A DNA stretch of 64,000 bases from Bacteroidota bacterium (GTDB lineage Bacteria; Bacteroidota; Bacteroidia; Bacteroidales; FEN-979), in the NCBI GenBank assembly GCA_026391805.1, contig JAPLDJ010000024.1, forward strand, positions 15,020-79,019. The letters are read 5' to 3'. This document shows, one piece after another, positions 7,525 to 35,998 of this stretch; within the stretch, counting starts at the first letter, position 1; each line of letters begins with the position of its first letter. The position numbers and the translations under genes were made by a program. The notes below the pieces were generated by a model, which worked only from the letters and a program-made list of their open reading frames with translations, was not told the DNA's origin and did no database searches.

Positions 7525-7563
7525 GGCAAAATTGATCCGAACCGGAAATGATTGAAAAATGTG

Positions 7564-8415: not shown

Positions 8416-8477
8416 CGGTCTTGCAAAGGATTGGTTGCAAAGATCGCAAAAAAGTTCAGATCACGATGGGTCCGGGT

Positions 8478-9992: not shown

Positions 9993-10059
9993 GCAGCAAT
10001 TTTAAACAAAGATGACGAAAAAACAGTAAAGATCTGCCAAATTCCGGAACAAGTTTGCA

Positions 10060-10221
10060 AAGCATACCTCCTTCGTGGTTCTTCGTGTCTTCTTCGTGAA
10101 CCCTCGTGTAACCATTATTAAATCTGATAAAACAAGATATTCAGGCGGGGATTTCTCCAAATGACTTTAAACAGGAATGCATTTTTTAATTTCACGAAGA
10201 CCACTAAGAAGACACGAAGAA
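10060..10221. repeat. long hairpin element, CACGAAG dialect
   Basis: The arm CCTTCGTGGTTCTTCGTGTCTTCTTCGTGAA (10060-10090) has its inverted complement TTCACGAAGACCACTAAGAAGACACGAAGAACCACGAAGAA at 10181-10221, separated by an AT-rich loop of about 90 nt. Confidence 0.65.
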
Positions 10222-10351
10222 CCACGAAGAATAGTCCTTTAACTGTCTTTTTAACCTCTGTTCCATTAAATTCAAATATAAATTTTAAGCGAGAATCCTT
10301 ACTTACTTGATACGAGCTTTCAACATGGTTTTTATAAAACATTAACATATT

Positions 10352-10359
10352 TATTTTTG
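10352..10359 (+). promoter_or_regulatory. candidate -7 box (TATTTTTG) for the carboxylase operon
   Basis: Exact TAnnTTTG match 94 nt upstream of ATG 10454, in an AT-rich spacer. Confidence 0.35.
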
Positions 10360-10453
10360 TCAGTTTCCCATATATTTCTAATTTCGTTCCCCTTTTAAAA
10401 ATTAACAGGTTGAATGTGAATCCGTTCAAAACGAATAATAAAGTAATTTCAGT

Positions 10454-14096: not shown

Positions 14097-14296
14097 ATAG
14101 CGAAAGGCGAAATAGCGAAAACTATTTTATTGCGAGGAGTGCAACGACGAAGCAATCTCCTTTCTTAGCCCCGCATTGTTGTCATCGCGAGGAACGAAGT
14201 GACGAAGCGACCTCTTTTAACTATTTCGCTATCTCGCAATTTTTCAATTTTTTATTACAAGTCCCGATTTCATCGGGGCGAAGCAACCCCCTGCAC
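14097..14296. repeat. cluster of short dispersed repeats (GCGAAA motifs plus three GTCATTGCGAG...CGAAGCAA units)
   Basis: ATAGCGAAAGGCGAAATAGCGAAAA at 14097. Units at about 14127-14160 (TTATTGCGAGGAGTGCAACGACGAAGCAATCTCC), 14179-14214 and 14258-14296 (GTCCCGATTTCATCGGGGCGAAGCAACCCCCTGCAC). Related units occur at 16226-16478 and 40131-40215. Confidence 0.7.
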
Positions 14297-14422
14297 GTTC
14301 AGTAAGACTTTCCCTTTAATCCGCCAAACAGGGGAAAGGTAATGTGACTTCGAAAAAATAACTTATAAATCATAAATAAGGAGATTGAATTTTGTGATAA
14401 GAGGTAGATTGGAGTAAATGCA

Positions 14423-20456: not shown

Positions 20457-22568
20457 ATGAGTAAATCTTCATACATCAGGAAAAAAAATCAGCCGGATGC
20501 TCCGAAAGCGCATCCTGCCTCCGTTGAAAAGGTGAAGGATGGAAAGAAGCCGGCTCCGGGGAAAAATGTACCGCCTCCGGTGAAAAAGATTATTCCGCCG
20601 TACAATACAAAAAAGGCCAACCGCTATTTTGTCCTCTTCTTTTTCGCGTGCTCGGTCATCCTTTACGGGAATACAATCCTCAACAAGTTTGCCGTCGACG
20701 ACAGTTTCGTGACGGGACCGCAGAATGAGCTGGTAAGCCAGGGATTCCATGCCATTCCGAAGATCTTTACTTCATTCTACGTTGAGAAAAAAGGCAATGT
20801 CGGAAACCAGCAATCCGATTACCGTCCAATCGTTAAACTGACTTATGCGATCGAAAGCGGGCTTTGGGGAAACAACAAAGCTGGCCGGAGCCACGCAATC
20901 AACATGCTGATCTATTTCTGGCTCATCACGCTGCTTTTTTTTATCCTGAGGCGGTTGCTGAAAGACTACAACATCCTCTTTCCGTTCCTGATCACAGTGC
21001 TTTTCATGGCCCACCCGGTTCACACCGAGGCGGTTGCCAGCCTGAAAAACCGCGATGAGCTGCTGGCATTTCTCTGCGGACTTGGCACTCTTCATTATTT
21101 CCTGCGCTACACTGAACACAGGAAGCCCTGGTACATCGTTGCCGCCCTCGGGATCTTTTTTGTCGGATACCTATGCAAATCATCGATCATCCCGTTTGTC
21201 TTTCTCATCCCGCTCGTACTCTATTTCTTTACCGACCTGAAGCCAAAGAGCTTTATCTGGATCTTTTTGGCCATACTGGCCATTATTGCAGTTGCATACC
21301 TCGGTCCGCGTATTTTCCTGCCCAAAGCCATCCCGTTCAAGGCCTTCATCGAAAATCCGCTGAACCTGGAGAAAAGCTTCTGGCTCAAGACCGGCACCGG
21401 TTTTATAACGTTGTTGTTTTACCAGAGGATCCTGGTGTTCCCGCATCCCCTGCTCTATTATTATGGGTATGACATGATACCGGTAACCGGCTGGGGAAAC
21501 ATCTGGGTGCTGGTCTCCTTTGTGATCCAGCTCGGGTTGTTCATCATTGCACTCAGGAAATTCCGTGAAAAACACATCCTCTCCTTTGCCATTCTCTGGT
21601 TTTTCCTGGCGATTTCAATGTACTCGAATGTGGCGGCGCCGGTGGTGGGGATCGTCGGCGAGCGTTTCGTCTTCAATGCCTCGCTGGGATTCTGCATTGC
21701 AGTAGTTTACCTGCTCTTCAGGATCTTCAGGACGGATCCCCGGAGCCTTACGATCGAATTCAACGAACGTGCAAAGATCGTTGTGATCCTCTTCCTGATC
21801 CTCATACCTTTTACGGCAATGACCATCAGCCGAAACCGCGCATGGAGAAACCTCCGCGACCTGTACACGGTCGATATCAAGTACCTTGACAATTCGGTTA
21901 AGGCCAACATCGAATATGCAAATTACCTTGTAGGCACCATTTACAGGGATCCCAATTACCTGCAAAATGGCGCCGTTAATGAAAAAAAACAGCAGGTGAT
22001 CGTCGGGCATTTCAGGAAAGCGCTGAAGCTCTATCCGGATGATTATTCCACCCTGAACGACCTTGCCGCGGCCTATCTGAATTTTTCGACGAAATACGAT
22101 TCCGGGGTGTTCTTTCTGAAGAAGGCCATCGCCCTTCGTCCCGAATTACAATCAGCATGGGTGAACATGGCCATGGCATACCGGAAAAAAAATAACCTCG
22201 ACAGCGCCATTGCATGCTATGAAAAGGTGCTGAAGATCAACCCTACCTCGATGACCGCCTGGTTCAAAATGGCTGACCTCTATTTTGAAAAAGGGGATGC
22301 TGCAAGGGCGATCCGGATGAATGAGGATGTCATGAAAAAACATCCTGAACTCGATGTGCCCTATTTCAACATCGGGTACTATTTTGTCATGCATGGCGAT
22401 ACCATAACGGCCATTAAGTACTGGGAACAGGCTGCCCAGCGGAATCCCGGCTATGAGGTCTGCATGAACCTGGCGATGATGTACAAGGGAAAAGGAAACA
22501 AGGAAAAGGCGGACTATTACTACGGCCTTGCCCAGGAAGCCCAGCGCCAGCGGAACCAGATGAGATAG
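20457..22568 (+). CDS. GT-C-fold membrane glycosyltransferase with C-terminal TPR domain (TMTC/PMT/ArnT-like)
   Basis: About 11 TM helices. The first loop carries the acidic motif NKFAVDDSFV, as in PMT/TMTC enzymes. The C-terminal 200 aa are TPR repeats. Assignment by architecture. Confidence 0.65.
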   Translation: MSKSSYIRKKNQPDAPKAHPASVEKVKDGKKPAPGKNVPPPVKKIIPPYNTKKANRYFVLFFFACSVILYGNTILNKFAVDDSFVTGPQNELVSQGFHAIPKIFTSFYVEKKGNVGNQQSDYRPIVKLTYAIESGLWGNNKAGRSHAINMLIYFWLITLLFFILRRLLKDYNILFPFLITVLFMAHPVHTEAVASLKNRDELLAFLCGLGTLHYFLRYTEHRKPWYIVAALGIFFVGYLCKSSIIPFVFLIPLVLYFFTDLKPKSFIWIFLAILAIIAVAYLGPRIFLPKAIPFKAFIENPLNLEKSFWLKTGTGFITLLFYQRILVFPHPLLYYYGYDMIPVTGWGNIWVLVSFVIQLGLFIIALRKFREKHILSFAILWFFLAISMYSNVAAPVVGIVGERFVFNASLGFCIAVVYLLFRIFRTDPRSLTIEFNERAKIVVILFLILIPFTAMTISRNRAWRNLRDLYTVDIKYLDNSVKANIEYANYLVGTIYRDPNYLQNGAVNEKKQQVIVGHFRKALKLYPDDYSTLNDLAAAYLNFSTKYDSGVFFLKKAIALRPELQSAWVNMAMAYRKKNNLDSAIACYEKVLKINPTSMTAWFKMADLYFEKGDAARAIRMNEDVMKKHPELDVPYFNIGYYFVMHGDTITAIKYWEQAAQRNPGYEVCMNLAMMYKGKGNKEKADYYYGLAQEAQRQRNQMR

Positions 22569-22638: not shown

Positions 22639-23595
22639 TCATCGTCCTTCCAATTCTCTCTTCAACTTCAGGCTGATGATCCTTACGCCCTCCGGGTTGA
22701 TGTGATCCGCATTAAAGAAATATTCCGGCTTTCCATGAAATTCGTTCCTGAAATCAAATACCCTGAAATCATTGCTGTTTTTTCTTGTAACTTCCATGAT
22801 TTCACGATCAAGTTTATCCAGGTCGACCATCCTTCCTGCATATTTTAAATATTCATCCGAATAGGGCATTCTTAACAGGATGAGATGAATCCTGTAGTGT
22901 TTGCAGAGCTCAAGTATTCTGAGATAGTACCTTGTTTCACCAAGGGTTGATTTCTTTCCATAGCTTGAAAGGTAGACCGATGCCAGTCCGAACCCCAGTG
23001 ATTCACGGTCGGGTTCTTTTGCAAAATTCCGGTAGTTCCGGGCGGGAATGTACCCGTTTTTTATAACGGAAAGATCGGCGTTGATGAACATCAGCGACAT
23101 TAAGATGTACCTGTAATTTCCCGCGTAAGAGTAAAAATTGCCCTGTGCCCAATCCAGTATGTATCCGGGATTTTTATACTCGCGCGCGAGTTCAAAATAA
23201 TCCAGGTATTTGCGCCAGTAACCTTCAAACGAGAGTTCCTTTTCAGCTCTTGGGCTGAAGTTGACAGGATCGATCGAAAGAAAAATATATTCAGGCCTCT
23301 TGTTTGTTTTTCCGAGGATGTACTTCAGTTTGTAATAGGTTTGCGTGTAAATCTCCTTTGGCATGATATAACAGAACCCTTTTCCGAGAATGGCCGGATC
23401 GACCCTGTCATGAGAATTTCCGAGCATCAGGTATTTCAGGGTATCTGAATAGCCTTCGAACTGCTGATCCTGGAGCCTGCTGATCCGGAAATAGTACATC
23501 TTATGATTGTAAGCGATATGAAAAATCAGGTTCACCGCTATCACCAGGATGATGAAGACCGACAATTTTATAAAGAAATGTCTGTTCCGGTTCAT
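22639..23595 (-). CDS. N-terminally membrane-anchored protein, putative MBOAT partner (DltD/AlgJ/DUF1574-like role)
   Basis: 318 aa with a single N-terminal TM (FFIKLSVFIILVIAVNLIFHIAY). It starts 2 nt after the MBOAT stop. Possible catalytic segments are LMLGNSHDR and FFNADHINPEG. The role is inferred from position, and the fold is not verified. Confidence 0.5.
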   Translation of the reverse strand: MNRNRHFFIKLSVFIILVIAVNLIFHIAYNHKMYYFRISRLQDQQFEGYSDTLKYLMLGNSHDRVDPAILGKGFCYIMPKEIYTQTYYKLKYILGKTNKRPEYIFLSIDPVNFSPRAEKELSFEGYWRKYLDYFELAREYKNPGYILDWAQGNFYSYAGNYRYILMSLMFINADLSVIKNGYIPARNYRNFAKEPDRESLGFGLASVYLSSYGKKSTLGETRYYLRILELCKHYRIHLILLRMPYSDEYLKYAGRMVDLDKLDREIMEVTRKNSNDFRVFDFRNEFHGKPEYFFNADHINPEGVRIISLKLKRELEGR

Positions 23596-23597: not shown

Positions 23598-25052
23598 TCA
23601 GAATTGAAAATAAAAGAACTGGTTACTTGCAAAAATCCCGAAAACAAGCAGGAAAAACAGCATGAATAGATAAGCCGAATACCTTACCGCGACCGGTTTT
23701 CCCATGAACTTTAAAGCAAAAGACTTTTCTTTTACAAGGTACTCGAACAAAAGCATGAAGATGATCAGTCCGAAGCTCAACAGAAGATCACTGTTCTTCA
23801 GCAGCGGCAACAGGATTGCTTTGTCGGTATGACTGAAATCAAACAGGTTCCGTATCATCAGGAAAGAATCACCCACCGGGTGCGATCCGAAGAAAAACCC
23901 CGTGGAACAGACCAGGAGAAAAGTAGCAATGATGTTCAGCCCCGTGAGCAGTTTCGGAACCCGGGTCAGCCCGGTGATGCGGTTGAAGTTTGACATGATC
24001 GGCTTGAACGTCCTTTCAAGAATGATATAGGTGCCGTGGAGGAGGCCGAAGATGATGAAATTCCAGTAAGGGCCGTGCCAGAAACCGATCAGTACAAATA
24101 CGATGACCAGGTTGAGGTTCATTCTCCAGTTCACGATCCTGCCGCGATACTTGAACGGCAGTGAAAAATATACATAGTCGCGCAGCCAGGAAGTTAGGGT
24201 CATGTGCCACCGGTTCCAGAATTCGGCAATCGACTGGGCACTGAACGGCCGGTTGAAATTCGGGCTGAGCCTGAACCCAAGGAGCCTGGCCGATCCGATC
24301 GCAATGTCGGTATAGCCTGAAAAATCAGCATACACCTGCATCATCTTCAGCATGATCGCCAGTGCGACCTCGATGCCGTGAAAATACCCGATGTTGGCAA
24401 AAACAGGCTGTACAAATATGGAAAGCCGGTCGGCAATAACGATCTTCTTGAACATGCCCCAGAGGATGAGCCGGAGGCCACTCGTGAAAAGCGTGGGGTC
24501 AAAATCGTGTTTGATATGGAACTGGGGAAGCAGCCTTCTTCCGCGTTCGATCGGGCCGGCCAGTACGAGCGGGAAAAAGGAGACGAACAGGGCATAGACA
24601 CCAAGGTTCTTTTCGGGTTTGAGAATGCCCCGGTAAACATCAATGGAATATCCGATGGTCTGGAACGTATAGAAGGAGATCCCGATGGGCAGAAGGATGC
24701 TGTAATAAGGGATGACGCTGCTTCTTCCTGCAATTCCCGCGACCTGGTTGATAAATTCAGTGAAAAAGCCGAGGTACTTGAAGAACACAAGCATCCCAAG
24801 GTTGATACAAATGGCCAGGACAAGGTATTTCCGGCGCTGTTTTTTCTTCGGAAACTTCCCCATCTGCATGGCAGCATACCAGGAAACAGCGGTTGCGCTC
24901 ATCAGCACCAGGACAAACTCAACTTTCCAGAGGAGGTAGAAGAAATAGCTTGCCGCCAGCAGGAGGATCCAGCGAAAGCGATGGGGGAGGGCATAGTACA
25001 ATAAAACTGTCAGGGGAAGGAAGAAGAGGTATCCGGCGGAATTGAAAAGCAT
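23598..25052 (-). CDS. MBOAT-family membrane O-acyltransferase (AlgI/DltB-like)
   Basis: 484 aa and polytopic. Hallmark motifs are FWNRWHMTLTSWLRDYVY and IGFWHGPYWNFIIFGLLHG, which contain the conserved His residues. Confidence 0.9.
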   Translation of the reverse strand: MLFNSAGYLFFLPLTVLLYYALPHRFRWILLLAASYFFYLLWKVEFVLVLMSATAVSWYAAMQMGKFPKKKQRRKYLVLAICINLGMLVFFKYLGFFTEFINQVAGIAGRSSVIPYYSILLPIGISFYTFQTIGYSIDVYRGILKPEKNLGVYALFVSFFPLVLAGPIERGRRLLPQFHIKHDFDPTLFTSGLRLILWGMFKKIVIADRLSIFVQPVFANIGYFHGIEVALAIMLKMMQVYADFSGYTDIAIGSARLLGFRLSPNFNRPFSAQSIAEFWNRWHMTLTSWLRDYVYFSLPFKYRGRIVNWRMNLNLVIVFVLIGFWHGPYWNFIIFGLLHGTYIILERTFKPIMSNFNRITGLTRVPKLLTGLNIIATFLLVCSTGFFFGSHPVGDSFLMIRNLFDFSHTDKAILLPLLKNSDLLLSFGLIIFMLLFEYLVKEKSFALKFMGKPVAVRYSAYLFMLFFLLVFGIFASNQFFYFQF

Positions 25053-25081: not shown

Positions 25082-25768
25082 TTAATTAACGCCCGCCTCG
25101 CGGTACCAGACTCCTTCCGGGGTCTCTTCCCGCTCAAGCTTATAGGGCGACTCTTTCAATAAAACTTCGATTTTCTGAGCAACTCCTGCCTCATAATCGG
25201 CAGGTTCAAAAAGAACCCTGGCTCTGGCGTCATTTCCAGCAATCAGCTTCACCGCTTTCCTGATTTTCCCGCCCCTCCGTTCAAAGCTCTCACGGGTGAT
25301 CTCGTATTGCTGGTGATCCACTCCCTCCTGGCCGTTACTGAGCCGGTATCCGAGTACCAGGTTGAATTTGATGGCATTGACGTTCGACCGCAGGATGTGC
25401 GCATACTGTTTGTTCCAGTTGAGCAGGTAGAAGGTGGTTTCGATGCCGGCAATGGATACAAGGTAAGGAACAAGTGTGCTGTAATAGTCTGTCCGGCCGA
25501 GGAAAATTCCGGATTCGGAAGTCCTGTTTTCCCAGTCGATATTTTTATCGTTGAGCAACCCGATCTTCTCTCCCTGGTAATGAATGAGCAGGAAATTATT
25601 CTGCAGGTTATCGACCGAACCGAACCACTTCTGCTGCTGTTCGGGGGTGATGATCTCCCGGTAATTCATGTTGAGCCTTACGGGGTCGGAGTTCCTCCAC
25701 TGCCTGACCAGCTCGATATCCTCCTCCTTCAGCCGTTCCAGGATGATCCCGTATTTAAAGAATTTCAT
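25082..25768 (-). CDS. GNAT-family N-acyltransferase
   Basis: 228 aa. The N-terminal LERLKEEDIELVRQWRNSDPV segment is typical of sugar-modifying GNATs such as the PseH type. Its start overlaps the GT2 stop by 14 nt. Confidence 0.6.
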   Translation of the reverse strand: MKFFKYGIILERLKEEDIELVRQWRNSDPVRLNMNYREIITPEQQQKWFGSVDNLQNNFLLIHYQGEKIGLLNDKNIDWENRTSESGIFLGRTDYYSTLVPYLVSIAGIETTFYLLNWNKQYAHILRSNVNAIKFNLVLGYRLSNGQEGVDHQQYEITRESFERRGGKIRKAVKLIAGNDARARVLFEPADYEAGVAQKIEVLLKESPYKLEREETPEGVWYREAGVN

Positions 25769-26696
25769 GGTTCAGGAGGTCTTTGATGGCAAAGGGAGGT
25801 TTCTGGTTCTGCACCTGGTAAATGCGGCTCAGGTATTCGCCGATGACGCCCAGCGAAAGCAAAATGATGCTGGTGGAGAAAAGGACAGCCACGATCAGGG
25901 CGGTGAACCCGAGGGGAACATCGTGGAAGATCCTCCTGTAGATAAACCATAACCCGATGATGAAGCTGAACATCGCCGTGATGAACCCGCCGTATACCAT
26001 CGCCCGCAGGGGGATGGAGGTATAATAGATCACCAGGTTGGAAGCCATTGTAAAGAGCGTCCCGGAGGTGTAGGTCGATTTCTGGTAAGGCCGTTTCACA
26101 TGCTCCACTTGTACGAAGGCGATGTGCGTCGTGTACCAGTTGAAAAGTTCGTCAATGTAAATGAAATTGATCTGGTGATTCAGGAGTTTTTTCCCGATAG
26201 ACGATTTCATTAACCTGAAGGAAGAACCGTAACCCTTAGTGTTGGAAAACTTGTGCGACCATCCTTTCAGCGCGCCGCTGCCAAGGTTTCTCACCATGGA
26301 ATGTTGCTTGCTGGTGTAAATGCCGTAAACAAGGTCGGCATCCGATTCCTTCATTGTTTCTGTGAGTTTGGCGATCTCCTCGGGAGGATTCTGAAGGTCA
26401 TCATCGATGGTGATGATGTACGACCCGGCGGCATGTGCTATCCCGCAGATGGTTGCATTGTGCTGTCCGAAATTCCGGGCCAGCCTTATGGCAGTGACAG
26501 TTTCAGGATTTGTTTTTTGGATGGACCCCAGCACCTTCCAGCTGGTATCGGAGCTGTCGTCATCAACAAAGATGACTTCAAAGGTTTTTTCAAGCTTGTT
26601 CATCGTCTGCCCGATCCGGCGGTAAAGCTCTTCGAGCGATTCACAGCTGTTATAAACCGGCACCACGATCGAATAATCATATTTCCGTTCGCTCAT
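25755..26696 (-). CDS. GT2 polyprenyl-phosphate glycosyltransferase (GtrB/ArnC/DPM1-like)
   Basis: YSIVVPVYNS, FVDDDSSD, RNFGQ, and DDDLQNPPEEI motifs, plus two C-terminal TM helices ending GEYLSRIY. This is the classic GtrB/ArnC architecture. Confidence 0.85.
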   Translation of the reverse strand: MSERKYDYSIVVPVYNSCESLEELYRRIGQTMNKLEKTFEVIFVDDDSSDTSWKVLGSIQKTNPETVTAIRLARNFGQHNATICGIAHAAGSYIITIDDDLQNPPEEIAKLTETMKESDADLVYGIYTSKQHSMVRNLGSGALKGWSHKFSNTKGYGSSFRLMKSSIGKKLLNHQINFIYIDELFNWYTTHIAFVQVEHVKRPYQKSTYTSGTLFTMASNLVIYYTSIPLRAMVYGGFITAMFSFIIGLWFIYRRIFHDVPLGFTALIVAVLFSTSIILLSLGVIGEYLSRIYQVQNQKPPFAIKDLLNHEIL

Positions 26697-26699
26697 AGG

Positions 26700-27434
26700 T
26701 CAGCCTCCTCCTAAGATCAGGTTTGTAGCGCTAATCCACTTTGATGCATCCGAAAGGTAGAAAACAATGGTATTTGCAACATCCGCCGGATCGCCAAGGC
26801 CCAGCAACTGCCTTTCCTCGATTTTATCCACGGCCTCCTGCGAATAATTTTCTGCCGTATCGTCCAGCATGGGGGTTCTGACAAAAGCAGGAGAAATGCA
26901 GTTGACCCGTGTCCCGCGCGGGGCAAGTTCGACGGCCAGCACGCGGGCGTAGCCTTCAAGCGCTGCCTTGGCGCTGATGTACATGGCCCCGCCCACAAAA
27001 GGGTAACGGGTGGAGATCGAAGAAATGAATACGATGGAGCTGTTCCCTTTGGCCAGTTTTTTCTTCCCGAGGATTCCTGCCGTCAGCAGTACGGAGGCAT
27101 CAAAGCTGATGGAAAATGTTTTGACAATGGTCTCTTTTGTTATGAACCTTGCGGGAGCCAGATCGGAAATGCCGGTGCTGTGAACCAGTCCGTCCAAAAT
27201 AGGTATCTCATTAACAAGCTTGTCAATATCCGCCTGAATGGTAAGATCGGCAATGAATTTCATGTGCCCTTCTCCCTGAAGCGCACTGAAGGTCTCGTCC
27301 AGGCGTTTTGCGTCCCGTCCTGTGATGATCAGCCTGGCGCCAAGCTCACTGGCTGTGATCGCAGTCTGTTTCCCCAGCCCCGAAGAAGCGCCGGTGACCA
27401 GGACTGTTTTTCCTTTCAGGTCAAATGGGTTCAT
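26700..27434 (-). CDS. SDR-family oxidoreductase (FabG-like ketoreductase)
   Basis: GKTVLVTGASSGLGK Rossmann motif and the YISAKAALEGY (YxxxK) active site. ATG 27434 overlaps the KASIII stop (ATGA). The track start at 27521 is an upstream extension. Confidence 0.85.
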   Translation of the reverse strand: MNPFDLKGKTVLVTGASSGLGKQTAITASELGARLIITGRDAKRLDETFSALQGEGHMKFIADLTIQADIDKLVNEIPILDGLVHSTGISDLAPARFITKETIVKTFSISFDASVLLTAGILGKKKLAKGNSSIVFISSISTRYPFVGGAMYISAKAALEGYARVLAVELAPRGTRVNCISPAFVRTPMLDDTAENYSQEAVDKIEERQLLGLGDPADVANTIVFYLSDASKWISATNLILGGG

Positions 27435-28516
27435 ATCTTTTCGGGTTTTTTCGGAGTGGCTTCCTGTTCGGTGAGTTCGGGAACAACAATGCCATCGGTA
27501 TGGATCAGAACCGTACCCCACGAGAGGCCGATCCCGAAGGCAGAGAGCAGCAGCTCTAGCGGCTGGGTCCTGAGCGCGTCACCCATCTGTGTCACCATGG
27601 TGAGCGGAATGGATGAACAGCTGGTATTGCCAAAATCTTTAAGTGAATAAGGCACCTTTTCCGGTGCGACTCTCAGCATCTTCCGTAGGGTTTCATTGAT
27701 CAGGCGGTTGGCCTGGTGAAAGAGGAGAAAATTGAACTCATCCAGGTTCCGGTTGAAATGGTTCAGGGTTGTCTTGATGTTCGGAACCACCTCCCGCAGT
27801 GAAAAATTGAATACCTCTATTCCGTCGAGGGCCACCTGCAACCGGTTCCGGTAGATGCCCTGTCCGTATTTCTTAACATCGAATGACTTTTTGCTCGTGA
27901 GGTTGCGCACGCCCCCGTCGTAAATGATGATGGCTTCATACCCGCTTCCGTCCGTCTGTAGGTTAAACTGCATCGGAGGGAAACCGGGTTTTAGTTCAAG
28001 AGCCGTTGCCGTTCCCGCATCGCCGAACAGCGGATAGGTGCTTTTATCACGGTATGCGGAAGTAATGGTTGAAATATCCCCGACCAGCAGCAACGCTTTC
28101 TGAACGCCGGTCGTTTTCATCAGGCTGCCGATCACCGAAAGACCGTAAACATATCCTGAGCAACCCAGGTTGATATCGAGTGTGATGCAGGTTTTGGGAA
28201 GTTTCAGCCGGTCCTGGAGAAGGGCCGATGTGGAAGGAATGATGTAATCCCGCGACTGTGAAACGAAAACCAGCAGGTTGATCTCGTTGCGCCCCCAACC
28301 CAGTTTTTCCATCAATTGTTCAGCCGCCTGCATGCAAAGATCGGAAGTGGTCTGACCCTGTTCCGCAATGCGACGCGTCTCAACACCGATGGTCCTGATC
28401 AGCAGTTCCCGCTCCTTTTTCGAGATCCAGGTATAATCCTGGTTGGAAGCTCTCTTCATGGGAACGCAGGATGAGAGGCCGGCAATACGGACATCGGGTA
28501 TCTCGAAGATGGCCAT
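27431..28516 (-). CDS. beta-ketoacyl-ACP synthase III family (FabH-like)
   Basis: 361 aa with the Cys-His-Asn triad contexts LGCSGYVYG, FHQAN and GNTSCSSIP. Confidence 0.85.
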   Translation of the reverse strand: MAIFEIPDVRIAGLSSCVPMKRASNQDYTWISKKERELLIRTIGVETRRIAEQGQTTSDLCMQAAEQLMEKLGWGRNEINLLVFVSQSRDYIIPSTSALLQDRLKLPKTCITLDINLGCSGYVYGLSVIGSLMKTTGVQKALLLVGDISTITSAYRDKSTYPLFGDAGTATALELKPGFPPMQFNLQTDGSGYEAIIIYDGGVRNLTSKKSFDVKKYGQGIYRNRLQVALDGIEVFNFSLREVVPNIKTTLNHFNRNLDEFNFLLFHQANRLINETLRKMLRVAPEKVPYSLKDFGNTSCSSIPLTMVTQMGDALRTQPLELLLSAFGIGLSWGTVLIHTDGIVVPELTEQEATPKKPEKI

Positions 28517-28554: not shown

Positions 28555-28562
28555 CAAAAGTA
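28555..28562 (-). promoter_or_regulatory. candidate -7 box (TACTTTTG) for the KASIII-to-MBOAT-partner operon
   Basis: The plus strand reads CAAAAGTA 38 nt upstream of ATG 28516. Confidence 0.45.
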
Positions 28563-28592
28563 CTTTTTTTTTCATTCAAGGTTCCATTTTTC

Positions 28593-28600
28593 TAATTTTG
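28593..28600 (+). promoter_or_regulatory. candidate -7 box (TAATTTTG) for the carrier-protein/FAAL pair
   Basis: Exact TAnnTTTG match 46 nt upstream of ATG 28647. It is back-to-back with the minus-strand box 30 nt away. Confidence 0.45.
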
Positions 28601-28646: not shown

Positions 28647-28889
28647 ATGGCAGCACAAACACTCGAAGAATTTCTGGTTGCATGGACTTCGATCCATCTG
28701 AATAAAGGTTTGCCGGTAAAACCGACCGAAACCTTATCCATGTATGGAATCACTTCTATTAAAGCATTACTGCTGGCCGAAGACACGCAAAACCTCTTCG
28801 GCTTCGAATGGCCCCCATACCTTTTTTTCCAGGACCTTACGATTGCAGAACTGGCCGAGGAAGGAAATAAGATGATGGAAGAGATTTGA
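28647..28889 (+). CDS. acyl/peptidyl carrier protein (80 aa)
   Basis: Four-helix carrier pattern: LSMYGITSIKALLLAEDTQNLFGFEW...LTIAELAE. The Ser of GITS sits at the phosphopantetheine position. Confidence 0.75.
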   Translation: MAAQTLEEFLVAWTSIHLNKGLPVKPTETLSMYGITSIKALLLAEDTQNLFGFEWPPYLFFQDLTIAELAEEGNKMMEEI

Positions 28890-28958
28890 CAATTCTTTGC
28901 AAACGACACGCCGATCAACTCATACAAACCTGAATCCTGAAACTAACGAAGATTAAAG

Positions 28959-30665
28959 ATGGCTGAAATTACTTCATACTACCAGCCGGAACTGACCCTT
29001 CCGGATCTTCTCAAACGCGCCGCGGACCGGAATCCTGATCTCTGCACCGGCTATTACGACAAGAACAATATCCTGACCTTCCAGACCTACAAGGAACTTC
29101 TTTCGGAAGCGAAAAAGATTGCAGGTGGACTTTCCGCCATTGGGCTGAATAAAGGCGACAAGATCATCATTGCCACAAAGTCCAACCGGGAAACGATTGA
29201 GATCCTATGGGGAGCCTTCTTCCTCGGTGTGGTCCCGACCATCCTGCAGCCTCCCGCCGCTTTTTCAGAAGATAACCCTGCCTTTATGAAGCTGCTGAAC
29301 GTGTCGAAGGTTCTGGACTCGCCGGTTATCATGATGAGCCCGGATGTAACGGAGACCGGAACGGTGCTGGATAATACCATACGGCACCGGGAAGACCTTG
29401 ACATGACCAGAAAGTATCCCGATCCCGGGTTGAAACCGGAGGACCTTGCCTTCATCCAGTTTTCGTCGGGCAGCACCGGCGATCCAAAGGGCGTGATGCT
29501 GACCCATTTCAACCTGATGATCAACCTGGATGCCATGCTCTACGGATTCGATACCCGCGAAGGAGACCGCTTCGGCAACTGGATGCCGCTGTTCCACGAC
29601 ATGGGACTGATTGGCTATCACCTGAATCCGATTTACGGCCTGGTATCACAGTACCAGCTCGACACGCTCGACTTTGTCATGAATCCGGCGCTCTGGCTGA
29701 ACATGATGAGCAGGGAAAAGGTAACCTCAGCAGGAACTACAAACTTCGGGCTGGCCCTGGTCCTGAAATACCTGAAGAGGGGCAGGCAGAACGAGCCCTG
29801 GGATTTTACCCACATGAAAGCATTGCTCAACGGTGCAGAACCCATCTCAGTAAGGACCATGCAGGAATTCATCGAAGCGCTGATCCCGTCGAAGCTGAAA
29901 CCTGAGGCCCTGATGCCGGTTTATGGCATGGCTGAAGCTACGCTGGCCATCGCTTTCGCATCCCTTAAAGAACATTACGTAGCAACGGCCTTCAATTCCT
30001 CCCTCCTCGACAGGAAACGCAGGGCGGTGCCTGTTGATCCGTCGGACCCCACCGCACGCATGCTCTCGGAAGTCGGTTGGCCGCTGAATGACTTCGAACT
30101 AAGGATCACGGATGACCATGACAACGAGGTGCCGGAAGGGAATTCAGGCCACATCCAGATCAAAGGGCCCAGCGTGACCAAAGGATACTATAAAAATTCC
30201 GAAGCCACAGCCTCGACTTTCTGCGGGGAATGGCTGAGGACGGGTGACATGGGCTTTTTCTTCGACGGCAGGCTATACATCAGCGGCCGCTTCAAGGACA
30301 TCATTTTCAGGAACGGCATCCACTATTTCGCCAATGACCTGGAGGACCTGGCCTGTACGATTGAAGAGATCAGTATCGGGAAAGTCATTTTCGGCGGGAC
30401 CACCGACCGGGAGACCGGCGAAGAAAAAGTGATTGCATTCATCGCCGGGCTGAATGAGGAGAAGGCCCGGGAGGTTTTCAAAAAGCTGCGGATAAAACTC
30501 CGGACTACACTGGGACTTTATGCTGATGTGCTTGTGCTGGTCAAATCGAACGAGATCCCAAAAACGTCAAGCGGGAAGCTGCAGCGGTACAAGCTTATGC
30601 AGCGTTACCTCGACGGTGAATTTGACGACAAGGTCATTATGCCGGAAAAAGGAGATTACCCATAA
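28959..30665 (+). CDS. fatty acyl-AMP ligase (FAAL-type ANL adenylase) 1
   Basis: TLPDLLKRAADRNPD start, LAFIQFSSGSTGDPKGVMLTHFNL, WLRTGDMGFFFDGRLYISGRFKDIIFRNG and KTSSGKLQR. These are typical FAAL motifs. Confidence 0.85.
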   Translation: MAEITSYYQPELTLPDLLKRAADRNPDLCTGYYDKNNILTFQTYKELLSEAKKIAGGLSAIGLNKGDKIIIATKSNRETIEILWGAFFLGVVPTILQPPAAFSEDNPAFMKLLNVSKVLDSPVIMMSPDVTETGTVLDNTIRHREDLDMTRKYPDPGLKPEDLAFIQFSSGSTGDPKGVMLTHFNLMINLDAMLYGFDTREGDRFGNWMPLFHDMGLIGYHLNPIYGLVSQYQLDTLDFVMNPALWLNMMSREKVTSAGTTNFGLALVLKYLKRGRQNEPWDFTHMKALLNGAEPISVRTMQEFIEALIPSKLKPEALMPVYGMAEATLAIAFASLKEHYVATAFNSSLLDRKRRAVPVDPSDPTARMLSEVGWPLNDFELRITDDHDNEVPEGNSGHIQIKGPSVTKGYYKNSEATASTFCGEWLRTGDMGFFFDGRLYISGRFKDIIFRNGIHYFANDLEDLACTIEEISIGKVIFGGTTDRETGEEKVIAFIAGLNEEKAREVFKKLRIKLRTTLGLYADVLVLVKSNEIPKTSSGKLQRYKLMQRYLDGEFDDKVIMPEKGDYP

Positions 30666-30690
30666 GGATGCTTGATATTTTTGACTCTGT

Positions 30691-30714
30691 CCCCTTCTCC
30701 TTCAGGAGAAGGGG
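30691..30714. terminator. perfect 10-bp stem-loop between convergent genes (no U-tract)
   Basis: CCCCTTCTCC TTCA GGAGAAGGGG, located between the FAAL1 stop (30665) and the carrier-2 stop (30747). Possibly a bidirectional terminator or a REP-like unit. Confidence 0.45.
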
Positions 30715-30746
30715 TGCAGGGGATGAGGTGATTGGATACGTCGTGA

Positions 30747-30986
30747 TTACTGTACCCGTTTTTCAATGATCCGATAAAGGTCGGCAACGGTTTTGGAGGT
30801 GGCAATATCTTCCGCATTGATGACCACATCATACTGCGTTTTAACCATGGCGATCAGGATGAGGGCATTGATGGAACTCCATTCAAAAACTTCCCTGAAA
30901 ATACTCTCCGGCTTCAGGGTTCCCGGCTTGATATCTTCATATTCTTCTTCGAGATGGGCGATGAATTCCTGGATGTTCATGGTCAT
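30747..30986 (-). CDS. acyl carrier protein 2 (about 78 aa)
   Basis: MNIQEFIAHLEEEYEDI...FEWSSINALILIAMVKTQYDVVI...VADLYRIIEKR, a carrier fold pattern with Ser in EWSS. The start is either ATG 30986 or 30980. The track start at 31097 overlaps the neighbour's promoter region. Confidence 0.7.
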   Translation of the reverse strand: MTMNIQEFIAHLEEEYEDIKPGTLKPESIFREVFEWSSINALILIAMVKTQYDVVINAEDIATSKTVADLYRIIEKRVQ

Positions 30987-30999
30987 TGGTATTATGGAA

Positions 31000-31007
31000 C
31001 AAAGGTA
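31000..31007 (-). promoter_or_regulatory. candidate -7 box (TACCTTTG) for carrier protein 2
   Basis: The plus strand reads CAAAGGTA 13 nt upstream of ATG 30986. Confidence 0.4.
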
Positions 31008-31084
31008 GGAATTTTCCCTGTACCCATGACTTTTTGAGAACAAATTCGTTCCTTTGCAGCACGATTCAATCTGTTGACAAAACC

Positions 31085-32779
31085 ATGCCTGAGACAAGCA
31101 TTTATTATCATCCCGAACTCACCTTGCCAGACCTTCTTTACAGGGCAGTTAGCGTGCATCCGGATCTGTTTATCGGGTATTGCGATAAAAATGGCGGGAT
31201 ACAGATCCAGAATTACACCGATCTGCTCGCTAGAGCCGAAATGATTGCCGGCGGTCTTTATAACCTGGGGTTAAGGCAGGGCGATAAAATGATCATTGCC
31301 ACCCAGGGCAACAGGGAAACAGTTGAGCTTCTCTGGGGCGGCTTTTTACTGGGCGTGGTTCCCACCATCCTTCAGCCTCCGGTAACCTTTTCAGGATACA
31401 ATCCCTCGGTCGTGAAATTAATGAACGTTTATCACCAGCTGGGGAAGCCGTTTATTTTTATGAGCCCCGAAATGAAGGATACCGGCGGGTTGCCTGAAGG
31501 GACCATAAAGCATACCGAAGATCTGGACGGGAGCGGCGGATACCCGAAACCCGCTTTATCAGCCGAAGATCTTGCCTTCATTCAGTTTTCATCCGGCAGC
31601 ACCGGTGATCCCAAAGGCATCATGCTTTCGCACCGGAACCTGATAACGAACATGGATTCGATCCGTATCGGACTCGATATTCATTACCCGGATCACCTCG
31701 GCAACTGGATGCCCCTGTTCCACGACATGGGACTGATCGGGTATCATATCACGGGCATTTACTGCATGGTGTTCCAGTACCAGGTCGAAACCATCGATTT
31801 CATCATGAACCCCGGCCTGTGGCTGAACCTGATGAGCCGGCAGAAAGTCACGATCTCCGGATGTCCCAACTTCGGACTGGCGCTGGTCGTGCGGCACCTG
31901 AACCGTAAAAAGCCGGATCCTGAATGGGATTTTTCCAGTCTTAAGGCATTGCTCAACGGTGCAGAGCCCATTTCGGTCAGGATCATGCATGAATTTGTGA
32001 ATGCCCTCAGCCCATATGGTTTCCGGCCTGAAGCGATGATGCCGGTATACGGCATGGCCGAGGCCACGCTGGCCATCTCATTCGCGCCGTTGCTGAAACC
32101 TTCGGTGATCTCTGCATTTGACGCCTTGCTGCTGGACCGCGAAAACCGCACAACTCCCGCGGATCCTTCGGATCCTTCCGCAAGGGTGCTCTCGGAAGTC
32201 GGGCTTGTTCTGAACGATATCGGGATCAGGATCACTGATGAAAATGACAAGCCACTGGAAGAAGGCATTGCCGGCCATATCCAGGTGAAAGGCCCGAACG
32301 TGACCTCGGGATATTACAATAATCCTTCTGCCACGGCTGCAGCATTCTGCGGTGAATGGCTCCGGACAGGAGATATAGGATTCTTCTTTGAAGGACGGCT
32401 TTACATCAGCGGGCGGTACAAGGATATTATTTTCAAGAATGGTCGGAACTATTTTGCCAACGACCTCGAAACCATGTCCTGCAGCATCGATGAGATAAAG
32501 TTCGGGAAAGTATGTTTCGGCGGAACGACCGGAAAAGAGGCCGCACAAGATAAAGTTATTGCATTCGTGGCGGGAATTTCTGACGAAAAAGCGCCTGAAA
32601 TATTCAGTAAGCTCAGGGGCCTTCTCCGAAGCAATCTCGGGATTACAGTCGATGAAATGGTGCTGATCAGATCCAACGAGATCCCCAAAACCTCCAGCGG
32701 CAAGCTGCAACGCTTCAAGCTGATGCAGCGCTACATCAGCGGGGAATTCGATGATAAAAAGATCACGGATGAATCATAA
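31085..32779 (+). CDS. fatty acyl-AMP ligase (FAAL-type) 2
   Basis: Paralog of 28959-30665, roughly 55-65% identical by eye, with the same motifs (LAFIQFSSGSTGDPKGIMLSHRNL, WLRTGDIGFFFEGRLYISGRYKDIIFKNG). ATG 31085 (MPETSIYYHPELTLPDLL) aligns with the FAAL1 start. Confidence 0.85.
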   Translation: MPETSIYYHPELTLPDLLYRAVSVHPDLFIGYCDKNGGIQIQNYTDLLARAEMIAGGLYNLGLRQGDKMIIATQGNRETVELLWGGFLLGVVPTILQPPVTFSGYNPSVVKLMNVYHQLGKPFIFMSPEMKDTGGLPEGTIKHTEDLDGSGGYPKPALSAEDLAFIQFSSGSTGDPKGIMLSHRNLITNMDSIRIGLDIHYPDHLGNWMPLFHDMGLIGYHITGIYCMVFQYQVETIDFIMNPGLWLNLMSRQKVTISGCPNFGLALVVRHLNRKKPDPEWDFSSLKALLNGAEPISVRIMHEFVNALSPYGFRPEAMMPVYGMAEATLAISFAPLLKPSVISAFDALLLDRENRTTPADPSDPSARVLSEVGLVLNDIGIRITDENDKPLEEGIAGHIQVKGPNVTSGYYNNPSATAAAFCGEWLRTGDIGFFFEGRLYISGRYKDIIFKNGRNYFANDLETMSCSIDEIKFGKVCFGGTTGKEAAQDKVIAFVAGISDEKAPEIFSKLRGLLRSNLGITVDEMVLIRSNEIPKTSSGKLQRFKLMQRYISGEFDDKKITDES

Positions 32780-32925: not shown

Positions 32926-34035
32926 TCAAATATTCCCAGGCGACTTTTTACCAAAGATTTTTAAATAGGTCTTCAGCAGGATCGTGGCTTTGAAGAAAAA
33001 CCACTGGCTCGCCTTTGCCGGGAGGTATGTCCCGATGATCATCATCGACAGCAGGATATAATTATAAGCCAGCATCGGAGAGGCTTTCAGGAAAAGAACA
33101 AAGCTGAACCTTTTGTCTCTTTTATAGTTTAACCGGTCAGCATATTTCCCCGCGATCTGGTCGGCCATCCTGACCTGCTGCTCAGTGAGCTTGTCCTGCC
33201 AGGTATTCATGCGCCCGGTATTGACCGGTTTCAGGAGGTTCTCATGAAATTTATCCCAAACTGTGTTGCTGAAGATTTCCGTCACCTCATCCTTCTTTTT
33301 ATAGAAATCGAATACCGACGGATCGTAGGAAATTCCGAGAAATTCGCACAGCGACCGGTAGGTCTTCTCCTGCTCCGTCACCAGGTCTTCATAACGGAGA
33401 ATGTAATACCGGTCAGGAAAACGGCGCTTGCACCGGAGGAACATCCGGGTAAAATAGCGCCACCGGCCAACCTGCAAAGGCAAAGAAGGAGCTTCCACGG
33501 CTACATCTTTCTCGACAAGTTTTTGAATAGAAATAAAATTATCCCTGTAATCCCGGATGATGCAAATGAATTTGGCTTCGGGGAAGATCTTCCGGAGCCG
33601 GCGTGAATAAATCGAATAGATCGGATTCTTGTCGCCGATCAGATGCGTCTGCTCCTTATGATATACGGAAAAGGCATAATAGTTAATGCTTTTCAGGAAA
33701 AGCTGGATCGAAGCTTTGTCTTTGTATTTCAGCAATTCACCAACGATGAATTCCTTGTCGAGCTTCAGGTTTTCAACCCTCCGCAGACTGAATTTCGAAT
33801 ATTCAAAAACATGATCGACGAACGACCGGATGGTGGCTTCATCCCATTTTTTAACCTTCTTGAAGCGCTGGTATAAAAAGAGCATGACCGGAAACTCAGG
33901 AGCGATCCTGACGTTCGGGTGGGCGTTGAACAGCGTGGTCAGCAAAGTAGTTCCCGACCGGGGCCTTCCGAAGATGAAAAAAATTGGGATCTTGCTCAGA
34001 TCGTCTGTTTCCATAATTGAATTTCTTTCAATCAT
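32926..34035 (-). CDS. sulfotransferase-family protein with C-terminal membrane segment(s)
   Basis: PAPS 5'-phosphosulfate loop FIFGRPRSGTTLL, 3'-phosphate motif IIRDYRDNFIS, and a hydrophobic tail PMLAYNYILLSMMIIGTYL...WFFFKATILL. Confidence 0.75.
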   Translation of the reverse strand: MIERNSIMETDDLSKIPIFFIFGRPRSGTTLLTTLFNAHPNVRIAPEFPVMLFLYQRFKKVKKWDEATIRSFVDHVFEYSKFSLRRVENLKLDKEFIVGELLKYKDKASIQLFLKSINYYAFSVYHKEQTHLIGDKNPIYSIYSRRLRKIFPEAKFICIIRDYRDNFISIQKLVEKDVAVEAPSLPLQVGRWRYFTRMFLRCKRRFPDRYYILRYEDLVTEQEKTYRSLCEFLGISYDPSVFDFYKKKDEVTEIFSNTVWDKFHENLLKPVNTGRMNTWQDKLTEQQVRMADQIAGKYADRLNYKRDKRFSFVLFLKASPMLAYNYILLSMMIIGTYLPAKASQWFFFKATILLKTYLKIFGKKSPGNI

Positions 34036-34410: not shown

Positions 34411-34450
34411 AATAACCATTACACATACGGTTTGTAATCTCTGTTATGCC

Positions 34451-34458
34451 TACTTTTG
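34451..34458 (+). promoter_or_regulatory. candidate -7 box (TACTTTTG) for the radical SAM pair
   Basis: Exact TAnnTTTG match. It lies downstream of the track start ATG 34446 and 35 nt upstream of ATG 34494, which favours 34494. Confidence 0.4.
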
Positions 34459-34493
34459 CAATTGCAGAAACAAATAAATTTCTAAAGGTCGAC

Positions 34494-35966: not shown

Positions 35967-35998
35967 ACCCGTTGAGCGAAGCTGTAGAAAATAAGAAG

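Follow-up and report, generated by a model that had tools for sequence, protein, structure and literature searches.

In Flavobacterium psychrophilum, the ketoacyl synthase (KAS) genes wfpC and wfpE, together with wfpD (acyl carrier protein, ACP), wfpF (ketoreductase, KR) and wfpG (N-acyltransferase), have been proposed to be responsible for the N-(3,5-dihydroxyhexanoyl) group of Qui2NAc4N (PMC6519341). The tetronate branch of Vibrio cholerae O1 comprises the carrier RfbK, the ligase RfbL and further enzymes, and N-acylates perosamine (PMC12208996, citing Morona et al. 1995). The anthrose pathway of Bacillus anthracis (AntC and AntD) yields an N-(3-hydroxyacyl)-4-amino-4,6-dideoxyhexose from a dTDP sugar with a coenzyme A (CoA) thioester as donor (Kubiak & Holden 2012, cited in PMC8141488). 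Cyanobacterial olefin synthases (OLS) are organized in the order fatty acyl-AMP ligase (FAAL), ACP, ketosynthase, KR and 3'-phosphoadenosine-5'-phosphosulfate (PAPS) sulfotransferase (PMC3903477). Here, these systems are compared with a gene cluster that surrounds a gene for a GNAT-type acyltransferase in a stretch of 64,000 nucleotides from a Bacteroidota bacterium (Bacteroidales, FEN-979; contig JAPLDJ010000024.1, positions 15,020 to 79,019), hereafter called the window.

A preliminary description of the window had suggested that a β-ketoacyl-ACP synthase III (KASIII), a ketoreductase, a carrier protein, the GNAT and the aminotransferase WecE could together build an N-(hydroxyacyl)-4-amino-4,6-dideoxyhexose. 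The 3,5-dihydroxyhexanoyl group that it ascribed to F. psychrophilum is correct, and a KAS/ACP/KR/N-acyltransferase module has indeed been proposed for it (PMC6519341); RfbK and RfbL of V. cholerae are a precedent for a carrier with a ligase (PMC12208996). On balance, we favour the view that the cluster encodes a conserved pathway of uncultured, Lentimicrobiaceae-like Bacteroidales, by which a hydroxyacyl group would be placed on a 4-amino-4,6-dideoxy sugar and loaded with it on a lipid carrier.

Gene content of the cluster and its conservation

The genes of the cluster could be identified, are arranged as listed below and co-occur in a conserved manner in related loci. The presence and position of the KASIII, short-chain dehydrogenase/reductase (SDR), GNAT, carrier protein (CP), FAAL and WecE genes named in the preliminary description were confirmed. 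Profile scores are given in bits, followed by the cut-off.

22639-23595, minus strand: X318, membrane-anchored protein of 318 aa, putative DltD/SGNH-like partner of the MBOAT protein; always follows the MBOAT gene.
23598-25052, minus strand: MBOAT, DltB-like, 484 aa (Pfam MBOAT, 75.1 bits vs. 27).
25082-25768, minus strand: GNAT, PseH-like N-acyltransferase, 228 aa (Pfam Acetyltransf_4, 27.0 bits vs. 24.3; Acetyltransf_3, 25.7 vs. 25.4).
25755-26696, minus strand: GT2, family 2 glycosyltransferase of the ArnC/GtrB polyprenyl-phosphate type, 313 aa, with C-terminal transmembrane helices (Pfam Glycos_transf_2).
26700-27434, minus strand: SDR, classical and ketoreductase-like, 244 aa from the ATG at 27434 (Pfam adh_short, adh_short_C2 and KR).
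27431-28516, minus strand: KASIII, FabH-like, 361 aa (Pfam ACP_syn_III, 49.9 bits; ACP_syn_III_C, 63.9 bits).
28555-28600: divergent promoter region, with TAnnTTTG at 28555-28562 (minus strand) and 28593-28600 (plus strand).
28647-28889, plus strand: CP1, carrier protein of the Dlt-like module, 80 aa (Pfam PP-binding, 28.5 bits vs. 20.8).
28959-30665, plus strand: FAAL1, 568 aa (Pfam AMP-binding; NCBIfam FAAL subfamily, 352 bits vs. 600).
30747-30980, minus strand: CP2, core carrier protein, 77 aa (Pfam PP-binding, 24.1 bits vs. 20.8).
31085-32779, plus strand: FAAL2, core fatty acyl-AMP ligase, 564 aa (FAAL-subfamily NCBIfam matches).
32926-34035, minus strand: PAPS-type sulfotransferase, 369 aa (Pfam Sulfotransfer_3 and Sulfotransfer_1).
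34446-35966, plus strand: B12-binding radical S-adenosylmethionine (SAM) enzyme 1, true start possibly at 34494 (Pfam B12-binding and Radical_SAM).
35906-37450, plus strand: B12-binding radical-SAM enzyme 2, start codon uncertain, 70% identical to enzyme 1.
37468-38781, minus strand: flippase of the MOP superfamily, Wzx-like, 437 aa (Pfam Polysacc_synt_3, Polysacc_synt and MurJ).
38896-40026, plus strand: WecE, dTDP-4-keto-6-deoxyhexose 4-aminotransferase, 376 aa (NCBIfam NF008687 and TIGR02379).

The Pfam margins of the GNAT are small, and its homologues match GNAT domains consistently. The protein has a conserved C-terminal extension of about 80 aa. Its highest-ranking NCBIfam family was PseH (TIGR03585; E 2.7e-14, 53.5 bits, 138 of 156 model positions), the next family appearing at E 0.01, and PseH was likewise the best match for all 50 diverse members sampled from the GNAT family, which comprised 667 representatives at 50% identity (E <= 1e-10). 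On these profile matches the enzyme is classed as PseH-like, not as PseH. Similarity to WecD was found neither among the NCBIfam matches (E <= 0.01) nor among the matches in the Protein Data Bank (PDB) (E <= 1, single-sequence and profile searches). The WecE-type aminotransferase, which the preliminary description had located at exactly the position listed above, scored above both curated NCBIfam cut-offs over residues 2-374 (NF008687, 514.9 bits vs. 375; TIGR02379, 477 bits vs. 434.85).

The KASIII showed the triad Cys119/His267/Asn297, invariant among 44 orthologues, and its top PDB match was 4efi (E 7e-66). Since its scores remained below the cut-offs of the housekeeping FabH models (PRK09352, 205.6 bits vs. 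249; TIGR00747, 178.3 vs. 292.1), it is regarded as a FabH-like paralogue. The SDR conserved the motif TGxxxGxG and the residues Ser138, Tyr152 and Lys156 (YxxxK); its FabG-type NCBIfam matches were below their cut-offs, and a glucose dehydrogenase subfamily (140.9 bits vs. 215) ranked higher than the best FabG model (123.9 bits vs. 222). As a short classical SDR, it is more readily seen as a ketoreductase for acyl carriers than as an enzyme of nucleotide sugars, since the latter are extended SDRs.

The carrier proteins and acyl-AMP ligases described as adjoining these genes are indeed adjacent, CP1, CP2, FAAL1 and FAAL2 occupying 28647-32779. Ser37 of CP1 and Ser36 of CP2 are invariant; CP2 showed weak matches to ACP families of NCBIfam, and CP1 is fused to its own ligase in many relatives. 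The best NCBIfam matches of both window ligases, beside which the carriers lie, were FAAL subfamilies, at 344-352 bits and a cut-off of 600, and the PDB matches of FAAL2 included FAALs (3pbk, 3kxw and FadD32). FAAL1 and FAAL2 share 62% identity. In other lineages FAAL1 is replaced by a fusion of an adenylation domain and a CP, about 29% identical.

Neither a dehydratase nor an enoyl reductase is encoded in the cluster, which suggests that the chain would be left as a 3-hydroxyacyl-carrier. Together with the single KASIII of the window, it also suggests one round of extension; of the one or two rounds considered previously, one is thus expected here and two are not, although the relatives L045 and L119 have two KASIII genes each. 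Genes for a biotin carboxylase (10454-11959, plus strand) and an acyl-CoA carboxyltransferase (12558-14096, plus strand) are located 8-16 kb upstream of the cluster, the latter kept at the same relative position in locus L052; the pair could provide a malonyl or methylmalonyl extender.

The GT2 aligned from residue 8 to 309 with positions 8-313 of the NCBIfam ArnC model at 167.5 bits, below the cut-off of 529 of this equivalog (NF007986), and over its full length with structures of ArnC (E 5e-40) and of GtrB (sll0501, 5ekp; E 1e-37). This end-to-end alignment, membrane helices included, points to a polyprenyl-phosphate glycosyltransferase type. Among the open reading frames (ORFs) of at least 180 aa in the window, this GT2 and the MOP flippase were the only marks of an rfb-type locus; no other glycosyltransferase, no Wzy and no initiating transferase such as WbaP or WecA was detected. 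The cluster is not of the rfb/O-antigen type, with which the preliminary description had proposed a comparison. In its predicted functions, the cluster resembles instead an Arn/Gtr-type route for a single sugar.

The best PDB matches of the sulfotransferase were the eukaryotic tyrosylprotein sulfotransferases TPST1/2 (E 3e-17), followed by the sulfotransferases of OLS (4gox, E 2e-13) and CurM (4gbm, E 1e-10), whose substrates are beta-hydroxyacyl-ACPs. The radical-SAM pair matched no NCBIfam family at its cut-off; the best partial matches were HpnR, BchE and HpnJ. The enzymes listed in the preliminary description are all present, and the conserved sulfotransferase, the radical-SAM enzymes and the GT2 that overlaps the GNAT had been overlooked.

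The MBOAT protein scored 165.1 bits with the NCBIfam DltB model (cut-off 375). X318 contains an invariant GNSH (residues 59-62) and Asp297-His298; its match to Pfam DltD was faint (12.2 bits vs. 22.7, E 0.12), a profile search of the PDB gave no match, and the AlphaFold2 single-sequence model, with a predicted local distance difference test (pLDDT) score of 43, was too poor to be used. FAAL1 (or the adenylation-CP fusion), CP1, MBOAT and X318 together constitute an accessory module that is separable from the core. A Dlt-like model for the locus had been considered either to compete with or to complement N-acylation of the sugar; as a module of this kind it would complement that branch, and the notion of competition is abandoned.

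The minus-strand interval 25082-28516, for which co-transcription of the KASIII, SDR and GNAT genes had been claimed, is delimited exactly by the stop of the GNAT gene and the start of the KASIII gene. It contains these three genes and a fourth, the GT2 at 25755-26696, which had been missed, and the operon continues into the MBOAT and the DltD-like gene. Six minus-strand genes make up the operon, in the order KASIII, SDR, GT2, GNAT, MBOAT and X318. The KASIII and SDR genes overlap by an ATGA, the SDR and GT2 genes are separated by 3 nt, the reading frames of GT2 and GNAT overlap by 14 nt, and the GNAT/MBOAT and MBOAT/X318 spacings are 29 and 2 nt, respectively. Between 22639 and 28600, the Bacteroidetes -7 motif TAnnTTTG has a sole minus-strand copy (28555-28562), which precedes the KASIII start by about 40 nt. 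The tight junctions and this lone upstream motif support co-transcription, short of proof.

The whole window contained 37 copies of TAnnTTTG, against 32 +/- 5 expected, a number not above chance, so that the motif positions alone are suggestive. Copies starting at 16516, 20431, 28555, 28593, 31000, 34052, 34451, 38817, 45343 and 46856 lie 20-50 nt upstream of many genes, and their positions suggest later true starts for the gene of radical-SAM enzyme 1 (ATG at 34494) and for a neighbouring gene for a GT-C-type membrane protein (ATG at 20457; see below). Scans for sigma-70 promoters and intrinsic terminators over the window were at chance level, and a search against Rfam gave no matches.

Orthologues of the GNAT with 60-78% identity were found in many metagenome-assembled genomes of uncultured Bacteroidales (Lentimicrobium, Lentimicrobiaceae and others labelled 'Prolixibacteraceae'). 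To determine which genes accompany it, 54 non-redundant loci, each with flanks of 6 kb or more on both sides of the GNAT gene, were collected by a scan with an alignment of close GNAT sequences. In 14 of them, designated divergent, the GNAT was 37-48% identical to that of the window; the other 40 are the close loci. The presence of each gene, as counts that depend on flank length and ignore phylogeny, was as follows.

KASIII: 50 of 54 loci; 12 of 14 divergent loci.
SDR: 50 of 54; 12 of 14 divergent.
CP2: 48 of 54; 11 of 14 divergent.
GT2: 48 of 54; 10 of 14 divergent.
FAAL: 44 of 54; 8 of 14 divergent.
Sulfotransferase: 39 of 54; 12 of 14 divergent.
X318: 32 of 54; 7 of 14 divergent.
MBOAT: 31 of 54; 7 of 14 divergent.
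Radical SAM: 26 of 54; 3 of 14 divergent.
Flippase: 21 of 54; 9 of 14 divergent.
WecE: 17 of 54; 9 of 14 divergent.

In gene orders such as that of the window, WecE falls outside a 10-kb flank, and WecE orthologues were therefore looked up directly. In all the orthologue contexts examined (L049, L050, L051 and L053), which represent four different gene orders, WecE belonged to the cluster and lay beside the flippase and the sulfotransferase. Judged by contigs of matching length, orthologues of GNAT and WecE appear to occur together on at least 15 contigs. An apparent position of WecE straight after the GNAT in six loci (L030, L034, L037, L039, L040 and L042) was ruled out, as thiL-like, uvrC and ppk2 genes intervene.

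The minimal core is illustrated by L053, on a contig of 5.27 Mb, which contains FAAL, radical SAM, CP, KASIII, SDR, GT2, GNAT, sulfotransferase, flippase and WecE. It lacks MBOAT, X318 and the second carrier, so that the GNAT is the sole acyltransferase available to off-load the carrier; MBOAT is absent from minimal clusters. In 94 of 95 loci the GNAT gene is directly preceded by the GT2 gene, with a stop/start overlap in 56. Two metagenomic proteins of 414-425 aa (P0444 and P0484) are GT2-GNAT fusions, whose halves share 43% and 40% identity with their counterparts in the window; their GT2 part is devoid of the C-terminal membrane region. A CP-GT2-GNAT trio without KASIII or SDR is retained in L110 and L127.

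The sulfotransferase was present together with KASIII in 39 of the 54 loci, 11 had KASIII alone, none had the sulfotransferase without KASIII, and four had neither, in a count uncorrected for phylogeny. Some related loci (L045, L086 and L096) contain two copies of the sulfotransferase. The number of radical-SAM genes varied from 0 to 3 among related clusters (0, 1, 0 and 3 in L049, L050, L051 and L053, respectively), and these genes often border the CP2 gene (L039). The cluster as a whole was kept at 37-78% GNAT identity across uncultured Bacteroidales of digesters, sediments and lakes, and a product conserved so widely is likely to be a widespread feature of the envelope.

Proposed pathway and alternative explanations

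From the sequence comparisons we infer every chemical step of the following scheme, including the acyl donor, the chain length and the final acceptor. A carboxylic acid, probably a fatty acid, would be adenylated by FAAL2 and loaded onto CP2. KASIII would add one malonyl unit and the SDR would reduce the 3-oxo group, to give a 3-hydroxyacyl-CP. The radical-SAM enzymes may methylate the chain and the sulfotransferase may sulfate the 3-hydroxyl; alternatively, both may act on the sugar. WecE is predicted to convert dTDP-4-keto-6-deoxyglucose, a precursor made by RmlA and RmlB encoded elsewhere, into a dTDP-4-amino-4,6-dideoxyhexose, and the PseH-like GNAT would acylate its 4-amino group with the carrier-bound chain, forming an amide. 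The ArnC/GtrB-like GT2, translationally coupled to the GNAT, could then put the N-acyl sugar on polyprenyl phosphate, and the Wzx-like flippase would turn the lipid-linked sugar outward for delivery to an envelope acceptor. In this genome, an additional, extracytoplasmic O-acylation is probably carried out by the relay of FAAL1, CP1, MBOAT and X318.

Use of a carrier-bound acyl group by the GNAT is suggested by elimination, since it is the sole acyltransferase in the minimal clusters, and by association, on account of the CP-GT2-GNAT trios (L110 and L127). GNAT-catalysed N-acylation of a 4-amino sugar with the KASIII/KR product, as put forward in the preliminary description, is supported with respect to the PseH-like family, the co-occurrence of carrier, KASIII and SDR, and the linkage to WecE; the support does not extend to the acyl donor. 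With regard to sulfation, the OLS-like set of FAAL, ACP, ketosynthase, KR and sulfotransferase and the constant company of KASIII make 3-hydroxyl sulfation of the carrier-bound chain a concrete possibility, and sulfation of the sugar is equally open.

Several observations weigh against this pathway. The GNAT scored below the PseH equivalog cut-off (53.5 vs. 93.1 bits), and its AlphaFold2 model reached a pLDDT of 55, the alignment (17 orthologues, 66-78% identical) having insufficient depth for a reliable structure. The canonical P-loop Q/RxxGxG/A is absent from the GNAT. The P-loop of Helicobacter pylori PseH is atypical too, yet this enzyme binds acetyl-CoA (PMC4964394); the P-loop is thus not diagnostic of the donor, and a non-canonical P-loop was dropped as a sign of a donor other than CoA. 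Neither rmlA nor rmlB was found in the window. GT2 is absent from some relatives (L096, L097 and L114), and a transferase to release the sugar from its lipid carrier could not be linked to the cluster. L018 and L065 carry the GNAT alone (68-71% identical; at about 10001-10675 and 7840-8514, respectively), with no cluster gene within 8-10 kb. Rearrangement may account for these lone genes, as may errors in the assembly or binning of the contig.

Among the alternatives, the strongest is plain N-acetylation: the GNAT would be a conventional acetyl-CoA-dependent enzyme that stands in functionally for WecD, leading to polyprenyl-P-Fuc4NAc or Qui4NAc, with the acyl line used elsewhere. We consider this unlikely. 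PseH and WecD, the usual partner of WecE, both use acetyl-CoA (PMC4964394), and in L126 and L133 the GNAT and WecE genes form an isolated pair, 80 bp apart on the same strand and with no other cluster gene, CP, KAS and KR included, so that the GNAT might simply N-acetylate. In L133 this pair is preceded (5458-7946) by genes for a NodU/CmcH-type carbamoyltransferase and an SxtJ-like protein, a context that hints at a different, carbamoylated amino-sugar pathway with the same GNAT clade. On plain N-acetylation, the acyl product could be O-linked to a glycan through the MBOAT/DltD-like relay, which requires a carrier-bound acyl donor such as the operon encodes, or could feed an unrelated lipid. 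The relay, however, has its own carrier (CP1) and ligase, and four loci (L053, L045, L092 and L116) keep FAAL, CP, KASIII and SDR without MBOAT or any other acyltransferase. Survival of the CP-GT2-GNAT trios after loss of KASIII and SDR, as well as a GNAT without detectable match to WecD, argue against it as well.

A second alternative, quite improbable in our judgement, is that the pathway yields no glycan decoration but a free amphiphile. This would be a lipo-amino-sugar or glycolipid, sulfated and comparable to Nod factors or mycobacterial sulfolipids, that the MOP protein exports. The acceptor of the GT2 would then be a lipid other than polyprenyl phosphate, as for HpnI with bacteriohopanetetrol, whereas ArnC and GtrB, with which the GT2 of the window aligns end to end, act on undecaprenyl phosphate. 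Long-chain acids are the usual substrates of FAALs, the sulfotransferase has a weak match to NoeE, and two routes of acylation are available, all of which would suit an amphiphile; so would a window without other glycosyltransferases, Wzy or an initiating transferase, and a cluster to which no GT-C protein or ligase acting downstream is reliably linked. Nevertheless, a Wzx-like flippase and a Dlt-like extracytoplasmic acylation are typical of glycan pathways on lipid carriers. Least probable of all, and very much so, is a dissociated line of the olefin-synthase/CurM kind (FAAL2, CP2, KASIII, SDR and sulfotransferase) that would make an alkene or enoyl product, sulfation activating the leaving group and the sugar genes being only loosely connected. 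In its favour, the sulfotransferase shares homology with those of OLS and CurM, never occurs without KASIII, and completes the domain set of an olefin synthase (PMC3903477). Against it, no thioesterase is encoded in the cluster, the top PDB matches of the sulfotransferase are tyrosylprotein sulfotransferases and not polyketide synthase enzymes, and conservation alongside KASIII and SDR is equally tight for GNAT, GT2, WecE and the sulfotransferase.

Returning to N-hydroxyacylation of a 4-amino sugar, a more elaborate form of it can be formulated, which is speculative and, taken in all its parts, unlikely. A 4-amino-4,6-dideoxyhexose delivered on polyprenyl phosphate would carry a long N-acyl chain that is FAAL-primed, once-extended by KASIII and the ketoreductase, C-methylated by the radical-SAM enzymes and C3-O-sulfated by a CurM/OLS-type sulfotransferase. 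In this dissociated olefin-synthase line, the GNAT, with a carrier-protein donor, would take the place of the thioesterase, and extracellular attachment of another acyl group would fall to the MBOAT relay. Such a sulfated lipo-amino-sugar, serving as an anchor or a decoration and restricted to anaerobic Bacteroidales, would belong to a class of envelope components not described before.

No paper on this gene combination was found in the literature, nor anything relevant on lipid or sugar chemistry of Lentimicrobium. If the favoured pathway is correct, it would be the first route to be defined for a PseH-clade GNAT that accepts a carrier-bound acyl group tailored by KAS and KR rather than acetyl-CoA, and fatty-acid-type assembly would be tied directly to a lipid-carrier sugar pathway of the Arn/Gtr type. 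It would possibly be relevant to surface charge, to phage or antimicrobial resistance, and to the interpretation of lipid biomarkers. In F. psychrophilum and V. cholerae, the genes assigned to N-hydroxyacyl groups on 4-amino sugars are predictions, and the cluster offers a handle on how such groups are installed.

Other features of the window

The operon is flanked by the gene of the GT-C-type protein mentioned above.

20457-22568, plus strand: TMTC/PMT-like GT-C membrane protein, 703-710 aa, with C-terminal tetratricopeptide repeats (TPRs); a neighbour, probably outside the system.

A start at 20457 agrees with the database protein P0241, of 703 aa. The membrane part of the window protein gave no Pfam match; homologues with 60-65% identity matched PMT_2 at 26-28 bits (cut-off 26.1) and, weakly, TMTC_DUF1736, and a GT-C fold is plausible by transitivity through these homologues. 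A profile search of the PDB returned TPR proteins only. The membrane domain contains an invariant Asp-Asp at 88-89. The gene adjoins the cluster in 23 of the 40 close loci and in one of the 14 divergent loci, and it is always beside ksgA. For these two reasons, the protein was rejected as a demonstrated component of the system, namely as an ArnT analogue that would end the pathway.

Type IX secretion C-terminal sorting domains are present on three large proteins (14423-16099, 47895-51980 and 57588-61718), two of them with CarboxypepD_reg; further CarboxypepD_reg paralogues are encoded at 52155-53828 and 55945-57759. The region 14001-16000 has a GC content of 0.37, against about 0.50 elsewhere, and coincides with the first of these genes (14423-16099, minus strand), which encodes an SBBP beta-propeller and may be horizontally acquired. 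Two neighbouring minus-strand ORFs, 7564-8415 and 8478-9992, both match Peptidase_S13 (D-Ala-D-Ala carboxypeptidase 3). Of the profile, the shorter ORF covers no more than the C-terminal third; this ORF, which also runs into the start of a CLC channel gene (5720-7765), could represent a pseudogene or a duplicate that has been truncated.

Comparison with known systems

By analogy, wfpC-G of F. psychrophilum would be the closest precedent for the chemistry. Both systems, each from the Bacteroidota, combine ACP, ketosynthase and ketoreductase genes with an N-acyltransferase and a 4-aminotransferase, and in both the hydroxyls would be kept, there being no dehydratase or enoyl reductase. F. psychrophilum has a PglD-type acyltransferase, UDP-Qui2NAc4N and two KAS genes, in contrast to the PseH-like GNAT and dTDP-type WecE found here, and its module belongs to a Wzx/Wzy O-antigen locus with several glycosyltransferases, whereas the window has one GT2. 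FAAL loading, the ArnC-like GT2, the sulfotransferase, the B12 radical-SAM enzymes and the Dlt-like module distinguish the present cluster. Both pathways are known as proposals.

The system of V. cholerae is similar in that an adenylate-forming ligase and a dedicated carrier within a sugar cluster give a hydroxyacyl group for a 4-amino-4,6-dideoxyhexose. It differs in the use of GDP-perosamine, the lack of a KASIII step, another type of transferase, and a homopolymeric O-antigen with an ABC exporter. In the anthrose pathway, AntD, a left-handed beta-helix enzyme, uses 3-hydroxy-3-methylbutyryl-CoA, and there is no carrier, KAS or lipid-carrier GT2.

With the L-Ara4N pathway Arn (PmrF) and the GtrB/CsbB/GacI systems, the cluster shares a DegT-family aminotransferase (ArnB/WecE), a predicted N-acylation before transfer, a GT2 that would load polyprenyl phosphate, and a flippase. 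The N-acyl group of Arn is a formyl group, introduced by the ArnA formyltransferase and later removed by ArnD, while no deacylase was found in the cluster; its sugar is UDP-Ara4N rather than a dTDP-6-deoxyhexose, and it includes ArnT, whereas no ArnT-type transferase is reliably linked to the genes described here. PseH (pseudaminic acid) and WecD/RffC (enterobacterial common antigen) are alike in GNAT fold and in C4-amine N-acylation of a nucleotide-activated 4-amino-4,6-dideoxyhexose. The GNAT of the window differs from them in its extension of about 80 aa and in its carrier/KAS/KR setting, PseH and WecD being acetyl-CoA enzymes (PMC4964394).

Catalytic order and a homologous sulfotransferase are shared with OLS and CurM. 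These are type I multidomain proteins with a terminal thioesterase that leads to a terminal alkene. The present cluster encodes separate proteins, with a FabH-like ketosynthase and no thioesterase, and off-loading by amide formation is proposed. The accessory module recalls DltABCD in its adenylating ligase, small carrier, MBOAT and single-pass membrane partner with Ser...Asp-His. It deviates from that model in that a FAAL (or the adenylation-CP fusion) replaces DltA, the host is Gram-negative, the module is dispensable for the core cluster, and MBOAT and X318 score below the Dlt cut-offs. What sets the present cluster apart from these systems is the combination of a PseH-like GNAT, a dTDP-type WecE, priming by a FAAL, a lone ArnC-like GT2, a conserved sulfotransferase, variable radical-SAM enzymes and an optional Dlt-like relay.

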